From a virus (Duplodnaviria > Heunggongvirae > Uroviricota > Caudoviricetes): 14,990 nt of DNA. The stretch lies in IMG/VR virus record IMGVR_UViG_2660238423_000033; one strand, given 5' to 3'. Every line of letters starts with the position of its first letter. Position 1 is the stretch's first letter. Shown piece by piece: positions 5,729-13,680 of this stretch. Below the pieces are notes generated by a model. It worked only from the letters and a program-made list of their open reading frames with translations, ran no database searches and was not told the origin of the DNA. Position numbers and translations under genes: made by a program.

Positions 5729-6301
5729 TCACACCCCCGCTAAATCCGCCCACCAGCGGCGATTATCCGCACGCGGCATTTTTTCGGGGTGCTGCTCATA
5801 CAGGGAACGGCGGGCCAGCTCCACGCCGGAATCAGGGTAAGCCGGTACGGATGTAACGGTAATTTCGTACAGTTCCGCCACCAGCACGGTGCGCACGCAT
5901 GGATCTGTTGTGGTATCCCATACATCCTTACGGGAACGAAAGCCAAAGCTCATGCCGGATATATCACCACGTTTAACCAGTTCGATAACGTCACGCCCTG
6001 TGCTGGTATCCGGTGGGGTAAGTTCAAAGCGTAACCCTGTGTCGTCCTCTTCCAGTTTCAGCGTGCCGGAACGGGTGCGCCCCAGTAACATGCTGTGGTC
6101 ATGCTCATACAGGCCGCGAACGTCATTACCCGCCGCAAGCCACTCAGTAAACGCCCCCCGCTGGAATTTTTCGTAAAACTCCCCCCATAGCAGTTCTGAA
6201 AGCTTATCCCAGCGAACAACGTAGCCCGTCAGCGTACCGGCTCCGCTGGTGGTGATTTCCGATGACCGGATTTCCATACTCTTCATAATTTTTTCACCCA
6301 T
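5729..6301 (-). CDS. prohead maturation protease, HK97 family (true start probably the ATG at 6286)
   Basis: Motifs GYVVRWDKLS, GAFTEWL, LYEHD, LLGRT, DDTGLRFEL and GDISGMSFGFR resemble the HK97 prohead protease family. The first ATG (6301) has no Shine-Dalgarno; the ATG at 6286 has GGTGA 7 nt upstream. Confidence 0.85.
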   Translation of the reverse strand: MGEKIMKSMEIRSSEITTSGAGTLTGYVVRWDKLSELLWGEFYEKFQRGAFTEWLAAGNDVRGLYEHDHSMLLGRTRSGTLKLEEDDTGLRFELTPPDTSTGRDVIELVKRGDISGMSFGFRSRKDVWDTTTDPCVRTVLVAELYEITVTSVPAYPDSGVELARRSLYEQHPEKMPRADNRRWWADLAGV

Positions 6302-6310
6302 AAAACACTA

Positions 6311-6330
6311 AAGGGGCTTTTAAGCCCCTT
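6311..6330 (-). terminator. perfect palindrome between the capsid and protease genes (possible attenuator)
   Basis: aaggggctt-tt-aagcccctt, 9 bp arms, followed on the minus strand by a T-rich stretch (tagtgtttt). Placement after the major capsid gene would favour high capsid stoichiometry. Confidence 0.3.
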
Positions 6331-6340
6331 CTGTATGCTG

Positions 6341-7498
6341 TTAATCGTCGTCCTGTGGCAGTTCCAGAATCTTGATCGCGTTCGAATCCACCACGCCACC
6401 GCCTAAATATTTCTGCGTGAAAATTTTGATGAAGCCCGGCTCTGTGAGGTTGTCCGGTCTGGTGCGAACACCTGTTTCGTGATCAACAATGTAGTAACCG
6501 CGTTTGAAGTCACCCAGGGCAATAACGTTATCAGGCATAAACTCCAGATATTCGACCGGAAGGCCCAGCAACGTATCAGGATCACCCGCCTGTAAACGGT
6601 CGCGCCAGATGTAATCACCGTTCGCGTTCTTCACCTTCTGAAGTTTTGCCGCCGTCGTGGAGTTAACCACCCAGACCGCGTTTTTGCGGTATTTTTTACG
6701 TAATGCAAATTTCAGGTCGATCAGCGGGTCCGCAGATGTCCACGCCAGAGATTCGGAAGGTTTAATTACCTGCAACGTACCAAAATCACGCTCTTTGTCG
6801 TTCTTCTCTGCACGGGGTACGGATAAAAAACCTTTTGCTTTTTTGTCACCGTCGCCCACAACCAGATCGCTTTCTTCGGTTTCCGTGAAGGTGTCGCCAA
6901 TCTCACCCGTCAGCCATGAAAGGATGTCCACATCGGAAAAATCCACGATTTCCTGTGTGGTGCGCGGGTACGCATAGACCGGATACAGCTTAATGCTCAC
7001 CTCGTTAATCTGCGGGGTGCTGGTCTGTTCGCGTGCCTTACCCTCTTCACCGTGGTTAACGGTCGCACCGCCAGCGGAAACAAGCTGCTTAAACTCGTTG
7101 CTGCTGATTTTCTTCACGGTACAGATGCGGCGCATGGTGGATTCATCCGCCAGCATTCGCATGATTTCGGTGTTCAGCTCGGGGATAACGGTATAACCAC
7201 CATCAGCGGGAACGCCTGTACTTAATGCGCGGGTTTCACCTGTCAGGATGTAGTTGCGTAGTTCTGCGGGGTCAGTGGTCTGACTGCTTTTACCTGGCTT
7301 GCTGCGCTCTTCGTCTGCAATGGCTTCAAGGCGGGAAATGTCTTTATCGAGGGATTCAGCTTTAGTGCGTAATTCGTCAAATTTTGCGCCCTCAGCATCG
7401 TTAAGACTGCGGTTTTCTTTTTCCGCGTTCTCCAGCATGTCGCGCATCTGATTTTTAATGGCGGTTTTCTGCTGGCGTAATTCGATTATTCTCGGCAT
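6341..7498 (-). CDS. major capsid protein, HK97 fold, with N-terminal coiled-coil (delta/scaffold-like) region
   Basis: 385 aa; N-terminal about 90 residues are charged and heptad-like (IIELRQQKTAIKNQMRDMLENAEKENRSL...ISRLEAIADEE), as in HK97 delta domains. Position next to the protease and portal supports the call. ATG at 7498. Confidence 0.8.
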   Translation of the reverse strand: MPRIIELRQQKTAIKNQMRDMLENAEKENRSLNDAEGAKFDELRTKAESLDKDISRLEAIADEERSKPGKSSQTTDPAELRNYILTGETRALSTGVPADGGYTVIPELNTEIMRMLADESTMRRICTVKKISSNEFKQLVSAGGATVNHGEEGKAREQTSTPQINEVSIKLYPVYAYPRTTQEIVDFSDVDILSWLTGEIGDTFTETEESDLVVGDGDKKAKGFLSVPRAEKNDKERDFGTLQVIKPSESLAWTSADPLIDLKFALRKKYRKNAVWVVNSTTAAKLQKVKNANGDYIWRDRLQAGDPDTLLGLPVEYLEFMPDNVIALGDFKRGYYIVDHETGVRTRPDNLTEPGFIKIFTQKYLGGGVVDSNAIKILELPQDDD

Positions 7499-7534
7499 AA
7501 AAAAAGTCCTGGGGTTAAGTAAGGAACTCCAGGA
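7499..7534 (-). promoter_or_regulatory. stem-loop plus U6 abutting the capsid start codon; it contains the only Shine-Dalgarno candidate
   Basis: Minus-strand RNA gtcctggaguu-ccuuacuu-aaccccaggac-UUUUUU-AUG: an 11 bp stem with one mismatch and an 8 nt loop, then six U and the capsid ATG. The AGGA in the 3' arm is 7 nt from the ATG. Confidence 0.4.
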
Positions 7535-7708
7535 CGCGGCAAAAACTCAACCGTTTTTCATAAGGAAATCAGCAATCGCACCGATCGTTTTCCCGCCTGG
7601 TAATGAATATTGGCGAGAACATTAACAGGCGGAAAAGTGGCCCCAGCGTCCTGGCACCACGGGCGAGAATAATCATGATTCAGTTCGGGTAAAATATGCC
7701 GATCCGCT

Positions 7709-7738
7709 CAGTGAACAACGTGGAACAACCACGAACAA
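7709..7738 (+). repeat. three GAACAA hexamers phased at exactly 10 bp (candidate regulator binding array)
   Basis: cagtGAACAAcgtgGAACAAccacGAACAAataa, with hexamers at 7713, 7723 and 7733. The same architecture occurs at 246-275 and, on the other strand, at 13681-13730. Confidence 0.45.
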
Positions 7739-7754
7739 ATAATTTACAAAAAAT

Positions 7755-7780
7755 GACAAAAAGCCGGATTTCTCCGGCTG
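7755..7780 (-). terminator. rho-independent terminator after the 74 aa gene
   Basis: Minus-strand RNA gccgga-GAAA-uccggc followed by uuuuugucauuuuuu; lies 12 nt after the stop at 7790. Confidence 0.6.
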
Positions 7781-7789
7781 TATGGGTGC

Positions 7790-8013
7790 TCAGTCCCTGA
7801 TCCCTTTCAGAAATTCTATCAATGCATCTATCTGTTCAGGATTTACCGCCAGCATTTCACCGGATAGAGCACATCTCACAAAACCATGCTGATCCTTTTC
7901 AATCAGTGCGCCCGTCTCCAGGAATGCGCGGTAATCATTGATGCTCATCGTCTCCATGTTGTCAGCATGGTATTTATCACGCTGTTTTAATATCTCATCA
8001 AATTTCATCGGCA
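7790..8013 (-). CDS. hypothetical protein (74 aa from the ATG at 8013; ORF track extends to 8092)
   Basis: MPMKFDEILKQRDKYHADNMETMSINDYRAFLETGALIEK...; GAGGA lies 7 nt upstream of the ATG at 8013. Flanked by terminators on both sides, so it is a stand-alone transcription unit. No family recognised. Confidence 0.5.
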
Positions 8014-8107
8014 TTGTTTTTTCCTCTGTTGTGTCTGTTTGTTTCAGATAGTAACTATGCCTGACCGTGACGAAAACCCGGTAATGCACCATACCGTTTC
8101 AACTGGT

Positions 8108-8134
8108 GCAAAAAAAGCCGGATTTCTCCGGCTG
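8108..8134 (-). terminator. rho-independent terminator after the perC-like gene
   Basis: Same 24 nt sequence as the terminator at 7755-7780 (aaaaagccggatttctccggctgt on the plus strand); the minus-strand hairpin is followed by U7. Confidence 0.65.
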
Positions 8135-8138
8135 TTGA

Positions 8139-8411
8139 TTAGCTGTCTGGGTAATTACGCCATATTTCATCGCTTACACCATCTATACCCATTTCAGCAT
8201 AAGTGCGATCTACTGCCTTTCTCAGGTCTCTGAAGTTATCCGGCGGCTCCGGTGGCTTCTGTGCCTTCCTGGAACATTCCAGCCGTCGCATCGTAACCTG
8301 ATGCCGTTCCTTGTCTGTCTCCACCAGCAGCATGACTTCACCCCATCGCGCCGCCGCCCTCCGGTAAAAGCCTTTCGCCTCGAGTTCTTCCGCTATGCGG
8401 TCATGTACCAT
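8139..8411 (-). CDS. PerC-like transcriptional regulator (91 aa from the ATG at 8411)
   Basis: MVHDRIAEELEAKGFYRRAAARWGEVMLLVETD resembles the PerC family N-terminus as I remember it. GAGGGGG lies 5 nt upstream of the ATG at 8411; the longer track ORF would overlap ssb. Confidence 0.5.
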   Translation of the reverse strand: MVHDRIAEELEAKGFYRRAAARWGEVMLLVETDKERHQVTMRRLECSRKAQKPPEPPDNFRDLRKAVDRTYAEMGIDGVSDEIWRNYPDS

Positions 8412-8421
8412 CGCCACCCCC

Positions 8422-8832
8422 TCAGAACGGAATACCGTCACCGTAAGGGTCATCGCCTCCCGCTGGTGGCTGATTACCCTGTGTGCCTGTGGTTTTGCGT
8501 CTGTTCCCGCCAGGAAGTGCCGCACGGGCACTGATTACGCTGTCTGCAATAACCTGATAACCCTGCCGCGTTTCCCCATTCTGTCCGGTCCACTGGCTGA
8601 CCTGCATCGTGCCGGATACGCTGGCAACGTCGCCTTTTTGATGTTTAGCCAGGAAGTCGGCCTGCTTACCAAATGCGATGACCGATAGCCATAACGTCGC
8701 CTGCCCATCCTGCGCCTGACTACATGGCAGCGATACCGCCATACGCGCCAGCGTCATCGGTGTACCCTTGCTGGTCTGTTTTACCTGCGGGTCGTCCACC
8801 AGCCGCCCGTAAGCTGCTATCTGTGCTGTCAT
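8422..8832 (-). CDS. ssb: single-stranded DNA-binding protein (short, 136 aa)
   Basis: OB-fold core WLSVIAFGKQADFLAKHQKGDVASVSGTMQVSQWTGQNGETRQGYQVIADSV, a Gly/Pro/Gln-rich linker and the canonical acidic C-terminal tail ending DGIPF. GGAGAGGTGG precedes the ATG. Confidence 0.8.
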   Translation of the reverse strand: MTAQIAAYGRLVDDPQVKQTSKGTPMTLARMAVSLPCSQAQDGQATLWLSVIAFGKQADFLAKHQKGDVASVSGTMQVSQWTGQNGETRQGYQVIADSVISARAALPGGNRRKTTGTQGNQPPAGGDDPYGDGIPF

Positions 8833-9107
8833 GATTCCACCTCTCCGGTTTTAACGTTGATGGTTGTTACCTGTTCCGCTTCGGCAATCTCCCGCTCTGT
8901 CAGCGTGGCAAAATTTGCCGCCGTCGTGGTCATGAATGCGCTTATCAGTTCGGGATGTGCTTTCGCGTATCCTTCCCCCGCGTGGCGGTCTATCGTTCTG
9001 ATTGCCACCTTTAAAGCGTGCTCTGTCATGTCTAACGCGCGATATTTCGGTTCTGTTCTGTCTCTGCGTTTTTTGAGTGATTTATTAAATTTCCCTGAAG
9101 TGTGCAT
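8829..9107 (-). CDS. hypothetical protein (92 aa), first gene downstream of the origin
   Basis: ATG at 9107 with GAGGGGG upstream; its stop overlaps the ssb start (ATGA). No family recognised. Confidence 0.45.
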   Translation of the reverse strand: MHTSGKFNKSLKKRRDRTEPKYRALDMTEHALKVAIRTIDRHAGEGYAKAHPELISAFMTTTAANFATLTEREIAEAEQVTTINVKTGEVES

Positions 9108-9149
9108 ATTTATTTTTACCCCCTCGTTTAAAAAGTTTTGAGTTGTGCC

Positions 9150-9385
9150 TCCCCTTGTCTACCTTATCTACCTTAGTGGCCCTCATACCAGTAATGGCGC
9201 GGCTTTCAGCTGGGTAGAGTGCTTTTATCCACTATCTACCCCGTGTCTACCTCCCTGTCTGATTCAGGTAAAATCAGGTAGAGAGGGTAGATAGTGGGTA
9301 GACAGTAAAAAAAGGCTATCTACCTAACTTAATGCACTGAATTAAATGTATTTTTCTTTACTCAGGTAGACAGGGTAGACAGCAA
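9150..9385. repeat. replication origin: iteron array (GGTAGACA and variants, both orientations) around an AT-rich core
   Basis: At least 11 copies of GGTAGA(C/T/G)A or its complement TGTCTACC/TATCTACC (for example 9156, 9166, 9233, 9244, 9278, 9287, 9298, 9317, 9366, 9375), with an AT-rich stretch at 9330-9360. Begins 14 bp after the pri-rep stop. Confidence 0.65.
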
Positions 9386-9395
9386 TTACAAAAAA

Positions 9396-11150
9396 TTATA
9401 AAAACGCGTCGCACTCGTCTGTTGTTATTGCGTTAGTCTGCGTTACTCCCTTAACTTTCCGCGTAATATATTCATGTCCGTAAACTTTCGCGGCTGGCTT
9501 CATAGCCTTGCCAAAGTCATTTACGTTTAGCGGTTTGCTCCTGCCTGCGTACGCCATAAACGCCAGATAGACGCGGTAAAGGCTGTTTCTGGTCGTGTAC
9601 TTCACTGAATCGCCACCGCCGCCCATCATCAGGCCGCGTGCTTCCTCCAGAAAATTCAGGAACTGGCAAAACTCAATAACCGGATCCGTCTGTTGCTTTA
9701 TTGCCAGAGCTTCATCACCGTCACGCTGTTCCAGTAGTAAAGCCCGTGCCTTCTCAGGGTCGGTAAAGTTCGCCAGCAATCGGCGGATAATGACAGGGAT
9801 TTCAGCCGCGATCTTTTCCGGTAGCTCCCTGTCTTTTTCGGCCTCACTGACGATATTGTCGAAACGGAAAATCACGCGACGACGTGCCACACCTCCGGCC
9901 CGTTCGGTGAATATCATCGGGTTATTGTTGGTCGCCAGCACCACCGCCCTGATTACAGCCGTGAAACGCTTTTCGTATTTCGGGTTAATTTCCACGGGGT
10001 CACCGCCCGTGATTTTCTTGATGCCCGTTCCTTCGCCTGTATATTTCGGCTGGTCAGCCAGGACGATAAGACGACTCCCGACAACCTGCGCACGTCCACC
10101 AGCATCATCAAGCGATGTCATTTCAGCGCTTACCGTGTTCTGTTTCCCTGCCAGAAGGCTGGCTATGTGCGTGAATGTACTTTTACCGCTCCCGCCGTCT
10201 CCGGTGGCCTCAATAAACATCTGCCAGTCGTACCGGTTCGCCATAATCATGTACAGCGCGGCACATATACGCATCATCTTGCGCGGGTCTTTTCCGGCTG
10301 CGTGCTCAAGCCATTTATGAAAGTTTGGCGCGTTATCGCGGATGTTCTCCCCTGGTGCTGGTGGCGTGTACTCAATGCCGTTGTGCGTGGTGATCCAGTT
10401 CTCCGGCGTGTGCGGGGAAAATTCCCCCGTTTTCAGGTCAAGCGCACCATTGGCGAACGGCAGCAAATCGCCGGACGGCTCGCCCATTGGTTCGGCAATA
10501 ACTTTTAACGCTTCCACGGCGTTATTGATTACGCGCTTGCTGAAAGTGGCCCTGTGCTCTGAATAGATCGCCACCATTTCGCGGCTAAGTTCCATTGTGC
10601 TGACCGGACACCATACCCCGCCGCGCCATACGTGAACGATTTCACTTTCAGGATGTACGCAAACGCCATCAAAGCGATCGGCAAGCAGCTGCGCGCGCTC
10701 ACTGTCCGCCATCTGCGAAAGTTGCGCCTTTTGCTTTACCGGAAGCTCAATGACCAGACCATCAGAAAGATTCTGGCGCTCACGAGCCAGATATTCGCGC
10801 CAGTTCTCCACCTTCTGACCGTGCATACCATCAGGGTAAAAATTTGCATCCTGTACGCCTGCCGCCGCCAGCTTCTGACCAATCGCCTTTATCATTACTG
10901 GCGCAAGATATCCGGCCCTGAATATGCGCACGGATTTTCTGCCTTCCGGCACAATTTGCAGCTTATCCAGTTCGGATAACTGCTGCTCCCCAAGCCACAC
11001 AGGAGGCTCATTATCTCCGGCCATACGCGCGTCATGTTCCTGCCATTGTTTTGCGTGTGACCAGGCATCACTACCCGCAAAAATAATGACTTCAGTTTCT
11101 TTGTGTTTTATGCCGCGTGACTGCTGTTTTACGTTCGGTGCCAGTTTCAT
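9396..11150 (-). CDS. primase/replication initiator (Pri-Rep), P4-alpha/D5-like with a Walker A NTPase
   Basis: 584 aa; Walker A motif ATGDGGSGKST mid-protein, with the N-terminal half consistent with a primase region. ATG at 11150 has AGGGG upstream and overlaps the upstream stop. Confidence 0.85.
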   Translation of the reverse strand: MKLAPNVKQQSRGIKHKETEVIIFAGSDAWSHAKQWQEHDARMAGDNEPPVWLGEQQLSELDKLQIVPEGRKSVRIFRAGYLAPVMIKAIGQKLAAAGVQDANFYPDGMHGQKVENWREYLARERQNLSDGLVIELPVKQKAQLSQMADSERAQLLADRFDGVCVHPESEIVHVWRGGVWCPVSTMELSREMVAIYSEHRATFSKRVINNAVEALKVIAEPMGEPSGDLLPFANGALDLKTGEFSPHTPENWITTHNGIEYTPPAPGENIRDNAPNFHKWLEHAAGKDPRKMMRICAALYMIMANRYDWQMFIEATGDGGSGKSTFTHIASLLAGKQNTVSAEMTSLDDAGGRAQVVGSRLIVLADQPKYTGEGTGIKKITGGDPVEINPKYEKRFTAVIRAVVLATNNNPMIFTERAGGVARRRVIFRFDNIVSEAEKDRELPEKIAAEIPVIIRRLLANFTDPEKARALLLEQRDGDEALAIKQQTDPVIEFCQFLNFLEEARGLMMGGGGDSVKYTTRNSLYRVYLAFMAYAGRSKPLNVNDFGKAMKPAAKVYGHEYITRKVKGVTQTNAITTDECDAFL

Positions 11151-13398: not shown

Positions 13399-13680
13399 TA
13401 TTGCCCCCTTTCGTTTCTTAAAGAGTTATTTCGTGTTCTATTGCGTTGGGATGTGTCTGATTGTGTCAGGATGATTCAGAGTTGGCAAATGTTGAGGTCG
13501 TATGGTTTACAGAAACAGGAATAATCAGGATAAAATCATTTAAATTCATGTTAATACAAAGGCATAAAATATTGTTTCATGCCTTTTTTCTCGCCATTTA
13601 AAGAGTGATTCGCTAGTGTATAAAAAACCAGTAACACATTAAAAATCAGCCACTTATAAATCCGTACACTTTTTCGCCTC

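Follow-up and report, generated by a model that had tools for sequence, protein, structure and literature searches.

The terminator-like hairpin that lies directly before the major capsid gene, called H3 here, is the last (3′) helix of a larger conserved and structured leader, H1-H2-H3, which belongs in cis to the capsid (packaging) operon. This leader probably tunes capsid gene expression. The best explanation as a whole, to which we give a probability of about 0.45, is a conserved cis-acting leader in which H3 would control the start site, would serve in the E. coli lineage as a terminator too, and could form an attenuator-like switch together with H1. The window, i. e. the whole stretch of 14,990 nucleotides that was analysed, is an E. 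coli capsid-forming PICI (cf-PICI) similar to EcCIEDL933, whose genes lie on the minus strand. The features used below are these:

7762-7779, minus strand: intrinsic terminator belonging to the gene upstream (phrog_1957 protein); marks the 5′ limit of the conserved block
7712-7749, minus strand: conserved motif TTGTAAATTATTTGT (7749-7735), then TTGTTC repeats phased at about 10 bp; candidate activator site or alternative promoter
7666-7693, minus strand: sigma-70-like promoter candidate, −35 TTTACC (7693-7688), 16-nt spacer, −10 TATTCT (7671-7666)
7664-7674, minus strand: GAUUAUUCUCG, perfectly complementary over 11 nt to capsid codons 2-5 (7494-7484), with which it is predicted to form a long-range closing helix
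7637-7660, minus strand: H1 hairpin, GUGGU-G-CCAG-GACG-CUGG-G-GCCAC, homologous to the highly conserved H1 of other lineages (GUGGCACUCAGACGUGAGCCGCCAC)
7646-7654, minus strand: CCAGGACGC, H1 apex, complement of the H3 5′ arm; candidate anti-terminator or anti-sequestrator strand
7589-7636, minus strand: H2, long hairpin of 11+5 bp, variable in sequence, with pairing conserved in relatives
7567-7586, minus strand: H2b, small hairpin specific to type A, a prediction only
7529-7537, minus strand: GCGUCCUGG, H3 5′ arm plus 2 nt, which pairs with the H3 3′ arm or with the H1 apex
7506-7535, minus strand: H3, terminator-like hairpin of 7+3 bp with one A·C mismatch and an 8-nt loop, and with the Shine-Dalgarno (SD) in its 3′ arm
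7507-7510, minus strand: AGGA, weak SD in the H3 3′ arm, paired with 7534-7531
7499-7505, minus strand: U7 tract between H3 and the ATG, following the closing pair without a gap; every type-A variant has T7 or T8
6341-7498, minus strand: gene of the major capsid protein (HK97 fold family), which opens the packaging operon
6310-6331, minus strand: GC-rich terminator-like hairpin directly 3′ of the capsid stop codon, with compensatory changes, kept in all lineages

The hairpin at the capsid start codon

The capsid ATG is placed at 7498-7496, and the RefSeq/PGAP start is the identical ATG. The N-termini of all capsid homologues begin at the Met at 7498, and the sequence upstream of it is fully divergent; on this comparison the assignment of the start codon is secure. 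On the mRNA strand, H3 reads GUCCUGG-A-GUU / CCUUACUU / AAC-C-CCAGGAC. Positions 7535-7529 pair with 7512-7506 and positions 7527-7525 with 7516-7514, around the mismatch A7528·C7513, and six of the pairs are G-C, five of them within the basal 7-bp helix. A first, sequence-only reading of this DNA had reported a terminator-like hairpin abutting the capsid ATG, and the hairpin proved real. When the segment 7545-7490 was folded with RNAfold, H3 was both the MFE and the centroid structure (−14.1 kcal/mol, z = −2.66), an energy equalled by 3 of 200 dinucleotide shuffles, and a mismatch-tolerant terminator scan called it a terminator (−12.7 kcal/mol, tail TTTTTTTA). The internal mismatch is the sole reason why a simple terminator scan missed it. 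This mismatch and the 8-nt loop had been described correctly; the stem starts at 7535 instead of 7534, and the tract is U7 instead of U6. Judged by its sequence, H3 has every feature of an intrinsic terminator. In the MFE structure of the full leader, the U-tract, the AUG and codons 2-5 were paired as well. The reading of the hairpin on the plus strand was rejected, as the U-tail is missing there and no convergent gene lies on that strand.

AGGA is the sole SD-like element found within 20 nt of the AUG, at a spacing of 8 nt, which bears out the earlier claim that the only SD candidate sits in the 3′ arm. It is weak, with an anti-SD pairing of −4.0 kcal/mol, compared to −9.9 for portal and −12.5 for perC, and the capsid SD is similarly weak across all leader types (−3.5 to −4.0 kcal/mol). 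Two consequences had been proposed for upstream transcripts, termination before the gene or an occluded ribosome-binding site. The terminator features and the position of the SD in the stem fit this proposal, but the U-tract is confined to one lineage (see below), and the predicted opening energy of the capsid start (−15 to +10) was 13.4 kcal/mol, at the top of the range of 14 other genes of the window (4.4 to 13.5 kcal/mol) yet inside it, with a median of 7.0 for type-B leaders. In silico, the capsid start is no more occluded than that of alpA or portal, which counts against a masking model; this modelled control weakens the word “occluded” for the capsid SD.

Conservation of the leader among cf-PICIs

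In the window, the leader measures about 160 nt between H1 (7660) and the ATG; counting from the conserved motif TTGTAAATT extends it to about 250 nt. It was compared across 195 related loci. A hairpin of −9 kcal/mol or lower, ending 0 to 11 nt before the capsid AUG, was present in 69 of 87 distinct upstream segments; the 18 segments without a stable start-proximal hairpin came mostly from AT-rich Pasteurellales/Orbales-type elements. At least five unrelated stems occupy the H3 position (GUCCUGG/CCAGGAC, UGGUUUC/GAAACCA, CGUGUUGGUU/AACCAAUACG, CUGCAUG/CAUGCAG and GUGUCUU/AAGACAC). The U-tract was found only in the E. coli/Shigella lineage, and 59 of the 69 segments with a start-proximal hairpin are devoid of it. 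Because of this confinement, termination is unlikely to be the conserved function: it looks like a lineage-specific addition, and the conserved role of H3 is most likely a control at translation start or of mRNA fate.

Among distinct E. coli-type (type-A) leaders, H3 is kept, with its terminator features, in 30 out of 31. Variants are mostly structure-preserving; a CC to UU change, for instance, removes the mismatch and creates a G·U pair, while in leader L060 H3 is rebuilt as a 9-bp stem. Such comparisons indicate that H3 is under selection.

H1 is almost invariant in sequence, with compensatory changes in type B, and in type-B H2 such changes affect 8 of the 9 stem pairs. Over 75 type-B leaders, H1, H2 and H3 together were 96.5% paired, with double changes at 10 pairs; the covariation score was 0.235, compared to 0.107 for shuffles (0 of 500 reached the observed value) and 0.03 to 0.09 for slid partners. 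The G·U pairs fit this strand only, which argues that the leader acts as RNA and not as DNA. It is unlikely to be a cos site, because the HNH-terS-terL order puts cos elsewhere and the G·U-compatible covariation points to RNA.

The type-B covariance model matched the leader of the window at 7670-7481 with H1 and H2 in register (21 bits; E = 3e-5 for a 401-nt search and 0.015 for 196 kb). It skipped H3 of the window, which is unaligned across types, so that the cross-lineage support for H3 is tabulated, not statistical, and comes from a handful of leader types. Within single lineages, neither H3 nor the alternative helix described below shows more than thin direct covariation, namely one compensatory pair in one clade. 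The z-score for folding of the whole leader was −4.5 in the window and −5.3 in a relative from Rosenbergiella whose leader differs in sequence. Taken over all comparisons, enterobacterial cf-PICIs share H1, H2 and a start-proximal hairpin as conserved structures. With the second conserved hairpin (6331-6310) after its stop codon, the capsid cistron is bracketed by structures.

Several other elements of the leader did not hold up. The long-range helix between 7674-7664 and codons 2-5 has uncompensated mismatches in leaders L060 and L085 and stays a prediction; its upstream strand lies before the inferred transcription start and would be absent from transcripts starting near 7660. A helix of AUGAAAAA (7562-7554) with the U-tract and AUG was rejected, as it is not conserved in L060. 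Leader peptides and translational coupling were rejected too: a 35-codon type-A ORF is lost in L060, a 10-codon type-B ORF is missing from many leaders, and ORFs with an AUGA overlap are not conserved. So was control of the CsrA type through GGA motifs, GGA not being conserved in type-B H1 or H3.

The leader had no match in 50,697 phage genomes. With Rfam 15, the window gave no match at gathering thresholds, and a permissive search of 7400-7850 returned chance-level hits only (E ≥ 1.8). No paper turned up when the literature was searched for the leader, the hairpin and H1 by their exact sequences.

Promoter-like element, alternative pairing and proposed role

A promoter within 7535-7755 had been suggested as a way to express the head genes. 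A conserved promoter-like element does exist in this interval, at a fixed position relative to H1 and in all leader types; it matches 8 of 12 consensus positions, which explains its absence from a standard promoter scan. Being upstream of the hairpin, however, it does not bypass H3, and every transcript reaching the capsid ATG crosses H3. From the sequence, we infer that transcription would begin around 7660, on the first base of H1. Further upstream, the conserved motif was found in 134 of 155 distinct upstream regions, and in 116 of 117 leaders it precedes H1 by 87 to 89 nt; above it the sequence is not conserved, and no Q-binding element was found there. A motif similar to that of the leader, TTTCTGTAAACCAT, is also present upstream of alpA, which encodes a 62-aa excisionase-type protein. 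Given this similarity, AlpA could possibly activate transcription from the leader promoter.

The H1 apex and the H3 5′ arm are complementary over 9 bp (duplex −23 kcal/mol), and 1 of 50 shuffles was as good. Types A, B and O differ in sequence, yet in each of them the H3 5′ arm finds its best upstream complement within H1, and in type B one double change from U-A to G-C in the alternative helix tracks in 4 sequences. Since the complementarity recurs in three sequence-distinct leader types, it suggests that the leader could be an attenuator-like switch. Models of the two states qualify this suggestion: the ON fold is predicted to be 7.6 to 11.6 kcal/mol less stable than the OFF fold, with an ensemble probability of about 0. 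In type B, the complementarity overlaps the H3 stem just partly and might reflect a tertiary contact between loops instead of a switch.

The explanation that we favour would then run as follows. The ancestral job of H3 would be control at the capsid translation start, through ribosome access or mRNA fate, and in the E. coli lineage H3 would have turned, in addition, into an intrinsic terminator. Transcripts coming from the early genes or from the promoter-like element above H1 would mostly stop at 7499-7505, one base before the AUG, and on those that read through, the SD would be weak and masked. Pairing of GCGUCCUGG (7537-7529) with CCAGGACGC (7654-7646) would destroy the terminator and uncover the SD in one step, following the classical attenuator scheme of 1:2, 2:3 and 3:4 pairings. 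The default predicted state is OFF, and an island or host factor would be a likelier trigger of the ON fold than a product of the helper phage. Against a tight OFF default, the major capsid protein is needed in bulk, and tail-less capsids are made spontaneously at a high level (10.1101/2025.02.11.637232).

As to possible factors, no recognisable RNA-binding regulator was found in the window, and the phrog_1957 protein, a conserved neighbour, has no recognisable fold. In some related islands, a ProQ/FinO-family RNA-binding protein is encoded two genes upstream of the leader.

With attenuators and riboswitch expression platforms, the leader shares a GC-rich hairpin followed by a U-run, an SD inside the hairpin and a competing upstream strand. 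It differs from them in having no conserved leader peptide and no recognised ligand-binding domain or Rfam family, in the U-run, which touches the start codon and is lineage-specific, and in the alternative fold, which is strongly disfavoured in silico. In phage T4, early readthrough transcripts of e, soc, 49 and I-TevI fold the ribosome-binding site into a hairpin, whereas late transcripts begin within that hairpin and leave the site free. The likeness lies in a late or structural gene whose ribosome-binding site is buried, upstream readthrough being poorly translated; in contrast, the T4 hairpins are not terminators, and because the only promoter-like element here is upstream of the hairpin, all transcripts contain both H3 arms. 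The mom gene of phage Mu, whose translation-inhibiting structure is opened by the Com protein, is again a late gene with SD and start in a stem, and activation of the capsid gene would likewise need remodelling of the leader RNA; unlike in Mu, no Com-like zinc-finger protein was found here.

Alternative explanations and significance

H3 with its U7 tract might be a plain, unregulated leaky terminator or insulator, which would damp readthrough from the early genes and fix the ratio of capsid-operon to early transcripts, the complementarity with H1 being structural or incidental. Ribosomes would open H3 on the fraction that reads through, perhaps aided by S1 on the U-tract. The canonical terminator features of H3, the two further terminators found just upstream of the leader (8133-8116 and 7779-7762), the thermodynamically negligible ON fold, the unexceptional opening energy of the capsid start and the production of capsids without special induction are all in keeping with this simpler scheme. 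It leaves unexplained the start-proximal hairpins without U-tract of 59 other distinct segments, the near-invariant H1 with its H3-arm complement in three unrelated versions, and the placing of a third terminator after, not before, a conserved promoter-like element. We consider it unlikely, on balance.

Doubtful to a similar degree is a more ambitious reading, in which the H1-H2-H3 leader of about 160 nt would be an undescribed class of cis-regulatory RNA specific to cf-PICIs, a factor-responsive switch with H1 as sensor. The factor might be an island protein such as the phrog_1957 protein, PerC or a ProQ/FinO-like protein, or else a signal tied to replication of the island. Once the H1 apex is released, H3 would open, allowing readthrough in the E. 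coli lineage and SD-poor translation in all lineages.

The leader of ompA carries a 5′-terminal stabilising hairpin, and that of rpsA is SD-less with three hairpins. By analogy, the present leader could be a positive 5′ UTR, stabilising the mRNA, promoting its translation, or both: H1 at the 5′ terminus would shield the message from RNase E, H3 and the pyrimidine-rich strands would present the start to 30S/S1, and the hairpin after the capsid gene would help to make a long-lived and abundant capsid message. The inferred transcription start at the first base of H1 agrees with this proposal, as do the conserved hairpins on both sides of the capsid cistron, the CU-rich single-stranded linkers upstream of H3 and the high spontaneous capsid production that has been reported. 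So does an SD that is weak or absent in all lineages, though the capsid protein is the most abundant product. The likeness to ompA and rpsA thus extends to a multi-hairpin 5′ UTR with single-stranded linkers that are pyrimidine- or A/U-rich, before a highly expressed gene with a poor SD. However, no sequence or Rfam similarity to these leaders was found, they have no terminator, and the function is a prediction here. A canonical terminator with U7 right before the AUG would moreover be counter-productive for a pure enhancer, and the transcription start used here is a predicted one. We hold this proposal to be somewhat less probable than the two above.

In the E. coli lineage, termination at U7 might also free a stable leader RNA of about 160 to 240 nt acting in trans, its hairpin and U7 forming an Hfq- or ProQ-binding 3′ end. 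Hfq-dependent sRNAs typically end in a terminator hairpin with at least 7 U behind it, a ProQ/FinO-family gene lies nearby in some related islands, and there is a precedent in StxS, an sRNA produced by early termination of the late transcript of a Shiga-toxin phage (PMC7547250). Still, no target or seed region was identified in the leader, and release of an sRNA is not the shared function, because the leader is conserved in lineages without a terminator at this place. This makes a poor candidate.

A gate set by the helper phage, whose Q- or N-like antiterminator would be needed to read through H3, was part of the sequence-only reading, and has become very improbable. The order of promoter, leader, terminator and structural genes is that of a lambdoid late operon, and the TAAATT inside the conserved motif, a hexamer identical to the −10 of lambda PR′, would speak for it. 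The island further resembles the lambdoid PR′-tR′ region under Q in its short terminator-ended leader before virion structural genes, and in that the terminated leader could be an sRNA. It differs by the overlap of its terminator with the ribosome-binding site of its first late gene, by the sequence above the motif, not conserved where a Q-binding element would sit, and by its proteins: no Q- or N-like gene was recognised with Pfam and PHROGs among the island ORFs scanned between int and the capsid gene, a set without int and SSB. The AlpA of Pseudomonas is an antiterminator with DNA-reading residues 126-142 and a Q-like fold (PMC9371919); homology of the island AlpA to it was rejected, as size and fold differ. 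The terminator is also missing in most lineages. What makes a helper-encoded antiterminator unlikely is published work: tail-less cf-PICI capsids are reported to be formed in non-lysogenic hosts and without helper induction, so that capsid expression of the island, unlike lambdoid late control, needs no helper (10.1101/2025.02.11.637232).

Just as improbable is a leader serving as substrate of RNase III or RNase E, for instance at H2 or at the predicted long-range helix, where cleavage would lift inhibition or make a stable 5′ end as at the RNase III sites of T7 or in the lambda N leader: near-perfect helices are there (16 bp in H2, conserved in structure only, and 11 bp with codons 2-5), but they are below the typical length of RNase III substrates, and the long-range one is not kept in natural variants.

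cf-PICIs build their own capsids and spread between species on borrowed phage tails. Two papers on cf-PICIs name no promoter or terminator, and no account of how the packaging operon is expressed is known to have been published. A leader right before the capsid gene is the obvious place to set the amount and timing of capsid synthesis, and in E. coli, where the terminator abuts the start codon, it lends itself easily to direct tests. Of 5426 complete E. coli genomes, 360 (about 7%) carry the leader, and so do many other Enterobacterales. Should the leader prove to be a genuine switch, mobile genetic elements would have gained a new kind of RNA regulatory element, which might also give a hold on the transfer of satellites; should it amount to no more than a leaky terminator with a stabilising UTR, it would be ordinary operon engineering.

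The hairpin at the capsid start codon

All genes of the window are encoded by the minus strand. Around the hairpin, the DNA matches E. coli MBT-5 at 100% identity and O157:H7 strains at 98.9%; in those genomes it lies within a 15-kb island inserted in tqsA. The gene order (integrase, AlpA-type regulator, replication genes, SSB, PerC and a small hypothetical protein, then major capsid protein, prohead protease, portal, connectors, HNH, TerS and TerL) matches the layout of capsid-forming PICIs (cf-PICIs), whose prototype is EcCIEDL933 (10.1101/2022.09.08.507074). The major capsid protein gene (6341-7498, minus strand) is the first of the packaging operon, and is preceded by 291 nt of non-coding DNA. 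The mRNA strand of its last part reads GUCCUGGAGUU-CCUUACUU-AACCCCAGGAC, then UUUUUUU, then AUG:

7535-7506, minus strand: stem of hairpin H3 (7 bp, an A·C mismatch, 3 bp, 8-nt loop)
7510-7507, minus strand: AGGA, the sole Shine-Dalgarno (SD)-like element, weak (-4.0 kcal/mol against the anti-SD)
7505-7499, minus strand: run of seven U residues, directly 5' of the ATG
7498-7496, minus strand: capsid ATG, in agreement with the RefSeq start annotation

Alignability of homologues ends exactly at this start codon. In local folding, H3 was both the minimum free energy and the centroid structure (-14.1 kcal/mol, z = -2.66, 3 of 200 shuffles being equally stable). The terminator-like hairpin noticed in the sequence-only reading was thus confirmed, by folding and by conservation, as a conserved and functional-looking element. 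Its order of hairpin, U-run and ATG stood; the stem starts at 7535 rather than 7534, and the run has seven U rather than six. That reading further noted that H3 sequesters the only SD, and suggested that head-gene expression is gated. Anti-SD pairing elsewhere in the window reached -9.9 (portal), -9.7 (HNH) and -12.5 kcal/mol (perC). The predicted cost of opening positions -15 to +10 was 13.4 kcal/mol at the capsid start, 13.5 at alpA and 13.1 at portal; on these predictions the capsid start would be no harder to open than those of alpA or portal, which tempers the gating proposal.

H3 within a conserved leader

We compared 195 loci from genomes, IMG/VR and metagenomes, with capsid proteins 62-100% identical to that of the window, which gave 155 distinct 350-nt upstream regions. 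Three leader types were defined from the sequence upstream of the capsid gene: A (E. coli and Shigella, window included), B (most other Enterobacterales) and O (a few others). Among 87 distinct 55-nt segments directly upstream of the capsid ATG, 69 had a hairpin of -9 kcal/mol or lower with a 3' arm ending at most 11 nt before AUG. Stem sequences were unrelated between groups:

Type A: GUCCUGG/CCAGGAC
Divergent type-A element (locus L060): GUCCUGGUG/CAUCAGGAC
Most of type B: UGGUUUC/GAAACCA
One type-B subgroup: CGUGUUGGUU/AACCAAUACG
Other leaders: CUGCAUG/CAUGCAG; GUGUCUU/AAGACAC

The commonest type-A stem variants keep pairing: a CC to UU change converts A·C to A-U and G-C to G·U, and a C to U variant likewise yields a G·U pair. 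Such pairing-preserving variants are good evidence for selection of an RNA hairpin at this position. All 10 type-A segments have a U-run after this hairpin, and none of the 59 others does. Termination right before the start codon is therefore a feature of the E. coli lineage, and the common function of H3 must differ. About half of the type-B leaders have a canonical terminator near the leader 5' end, ∼175 nt before the ATG; none was found in the other half. The capsid SD is weak in every lineage and the 3' arm of H3 sits at the SD position, so that the common function of H3 would most plausibly concern translation initiation or mRNA fate. The predicted opening cost of the capsid start had a median of 7.0 kcal/mol in type-B leaders.

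As side observations, the capsid gene is essentially SD-less in most non-E. coli islands (best -3.5 kcal/mol; type-B leaders, e.g. locus L003, 2960-3003), and in type B both CCACUCC before AUG and the linker UCCCCUCC before H3 resemble the anti-SD itself.

The 291 nt from the upstream gene to the capsid ATG folded with z = -4.5 relative to shuffles, and the equivalent region of a Rosenbergiella relative, different in sequence, with z = -5.3. Upstream of H3, the following helices are predicted:

7660-7637, minus strand: H1
7636-7589, minus strand: H2
7586-7567, minus strand: H2b
7553-7537, minus strand: a small helix

Across the 75 type-B leaders, H1, H2 and H3 together were 96.5% paired, with double compensatory changes in 10 pairs. 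The covariation score was 0.235, against 0.107 for column shuffles (0 of 500 reached 0.235) and 0.03-0.09 for slid partners. H2 was the main source (8 of its 9 stem pairs); the H1 sequence (GUGGCACUCAGACGUGAGCCGCCAC) is near-invariant in type B, with two compensatory pairs from one clade. A type-B covariance model matched the window leader at 7670-7481 (21 bits) with H1 and H2 in register, and types A and B are therefore homologous. H3 belongs, as one of several helices, to a conserved leader of cf-PICI capsid genes. The earlier interpretation was partly right: the hairpin has terminator anatomy, its stem holds the SD, and a promoter-like element lies upstream. What had been missed is that H3 is part of this larger structure and that termination is lineage-specific.

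The leader had no match in Rfam or among 50,697 phage genomes, and a literature search for the hairpin, H1 and the motif by exact sequence found none of them. Of 5426 complete E. coli genomes, 360 carry the leader at ≥80% coverage. It is new to Rfam and to the literature searched, as a new form of an already known type of control.

A possible switch and its alternatives

The 5' arm of H3 with two more bases (GCGUCCUGG, 7537-7529) is the perfect complement of the H1 apex (CCAGGACGC, 7654-7646), in a duplex of -23 kcal/mol equalled by 1 of 50 shuffles. Equivalents are AGACGUGA in H1 and UCACGUCU on the 5' side of H3 in type B, where a U-A to G-C double change co-varies in four sequences, and CAUGUAGGU and ACCUGCAUG in type O. 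This alternative pairing may be an attenuator architecture: with H1 and H3 formed, the leader would be in a terminating or sequestering state; if the H1 apex instead paired with the H3 5' arm, the SD would be released and, in E. coli, the terminator lost as well. Four serious reservations apply. The alternative fold is predicted to be 7.6-11.6 kcal/mol less stable, with an ensemble probability of ∼0. As the type-B pairings overlap only in part, a loop-loop tertiary contact is another possible reading. No leader peptide was conserved among the leaders compared, and no sensor was recognisable. The best explanation, to which we give a probability of about 0.45, is that the leader regulates in cis in the manner of an attenuator: H3 would mask the start region everywhere and also terminate in E. 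coli.

Two rivals keep substantial weight: a 5' UTR that stabilises the message or promotes its translation, and a plain leaky terminator without any switch. The other end of the cistron bears on both:

6331-6310, minus strand: GC-rich terminator-like hairpin, directly after the capsid stop codon

This hairpin is kept in all lineages with compensatory stem changes, e.g. AGGGGCUUCGGCCCCU (capsid-protease intergenic region, loci L003-L214), which suggests a partial terminator or 3' stabiliser raising capsid mRNA over downstream genes. With conserved hairpins in the 5' leader and after the stop, the capsid cistron is bracketed by structures. The major capsid protein is needed in abundance, and both rivals are retained because such bracketing suits a message that is stabilised and abundant no less well than it suits a tight gate. 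Spontaneous capsid production has been described as high (10.1101/2025.02.11.637232). The helper-encoded antiterminator suggested in the sequence-only reading is contradicted by published capsid formation without helper induction, tail-less capsids being reported for EcCIEDL933 without induction and for a Klebsiella island in a non-lysogenic host (10.1101/2025.02.11.637232).

Of the island ORFs scanned, none was recognised as encoding a Q- or N-like protein. The study that reported the tail-less capsids also over-expressed alpA "to promote EcCIEDL933 reproduction" (10.1101/2025.02.11.637232). The Pseudomonas antiterminator AlpA is Q-like, and its DNA-reading residues are at positions 126-142 (PMC9371919), whereas the island AlpA is a 62-residue excisionase-type protein; they have the name in common. 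The capsid leader is readily testable.

Upstream elements and neighbouring genes

A standard scan of 7200-8200 gave no sigma-70 promoter. Anchoring the leaders on H1 revealed a -35-like TTTAC(A/C/T), 16 nt, a -10-like TAT(C/G/T)(T/C)T, and 6 nt to H1. In the window these upstream elements are:

7749-7735, minus strand: motif TTGTAAATTATTTGT, found in 134 of the 155 upstream regions
7693-7688 (TTTACC) and 7671-7666 (TATTCT), minus strand: promoter-like element with the shared spacing to H1

In 116 of 117 leaders, 87-89 nt separate the motif from H1, regardless of the intervening sequence, and TTGT-type repeats with a ∼10-bp period come after the motif; the H1-to-ATG distance varies (117-167 nt). 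From these sequences we infer a weak core promoter with an upstream activator site, and a transcript that would begin at H1. Whether or not it does, any route to the capsid ATG crosses H3.

Elements similar to the motif (TTTCTGTAAACCAT and TTTTGTAATTG) occur upstream of alpA (13503-13516) and where the GTCTACC iteron region begins (9383-9403), and motifs of this type may be common binding sites of one island regulator, for instance AlpA. The dense GTCTACC / GGTAGA(C/T)A repeat array downstream of the primase gene (9150-9400, minus strand) is presumably the replication origin.

Between ssb and the phrog_1957 gene, the small gene directly upstream of the leader, PerC is encoded in 28 of 31 E. 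coli type-A islands (window 8139-8411). A ProQ/FinO-family RNA-binding protein replaces it in a type-B subgroup (L215, 1688-2230; L090-L094, L159, L160); that such an RNA chaperone is encoded two genes 5' of a structured leader may be more than chance. The phrog_1957 gene lies between two terminator hairpins of identical sequence, AGCCGGAGAAAUCCGGCU, each with a U-run after it (8116-8133 and 7762-7779, minus strand). As homology to the window begins exactly at the second copy in islands with another upstream gene, the pair looks like the edges of an exchangeable cassette. A second PICI of O157:H7 strains (locus L072, E. coli O157:H7 FRIK2069, 6001-9500) has the same perC-phrog_1957-terminator block, followed by a different leader and packaging module (different capsid protein, head decoration protein and TerS), so the regulatory block is shared by different satellite types. 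The 116-nt "trigger factor, frameshifted" pseudogene of RefSeq NZ_CP058682.2 between perC and the phrog_1957 gene (∼8055-8170 in the window) is almost certainly a false annotation; it overlaps the first copy of the terminator.

Finally, the protease gene is probably annotated five codons too long at its start (6284-6301, minus strand). No SD precedes the annotated ATG (6301), which directly abuts the post-capsid hairpin; five codons downstream, an in-frame ATG (6286) is preceded by a GGGUGA SD and lines up with the protease start of other lineages.
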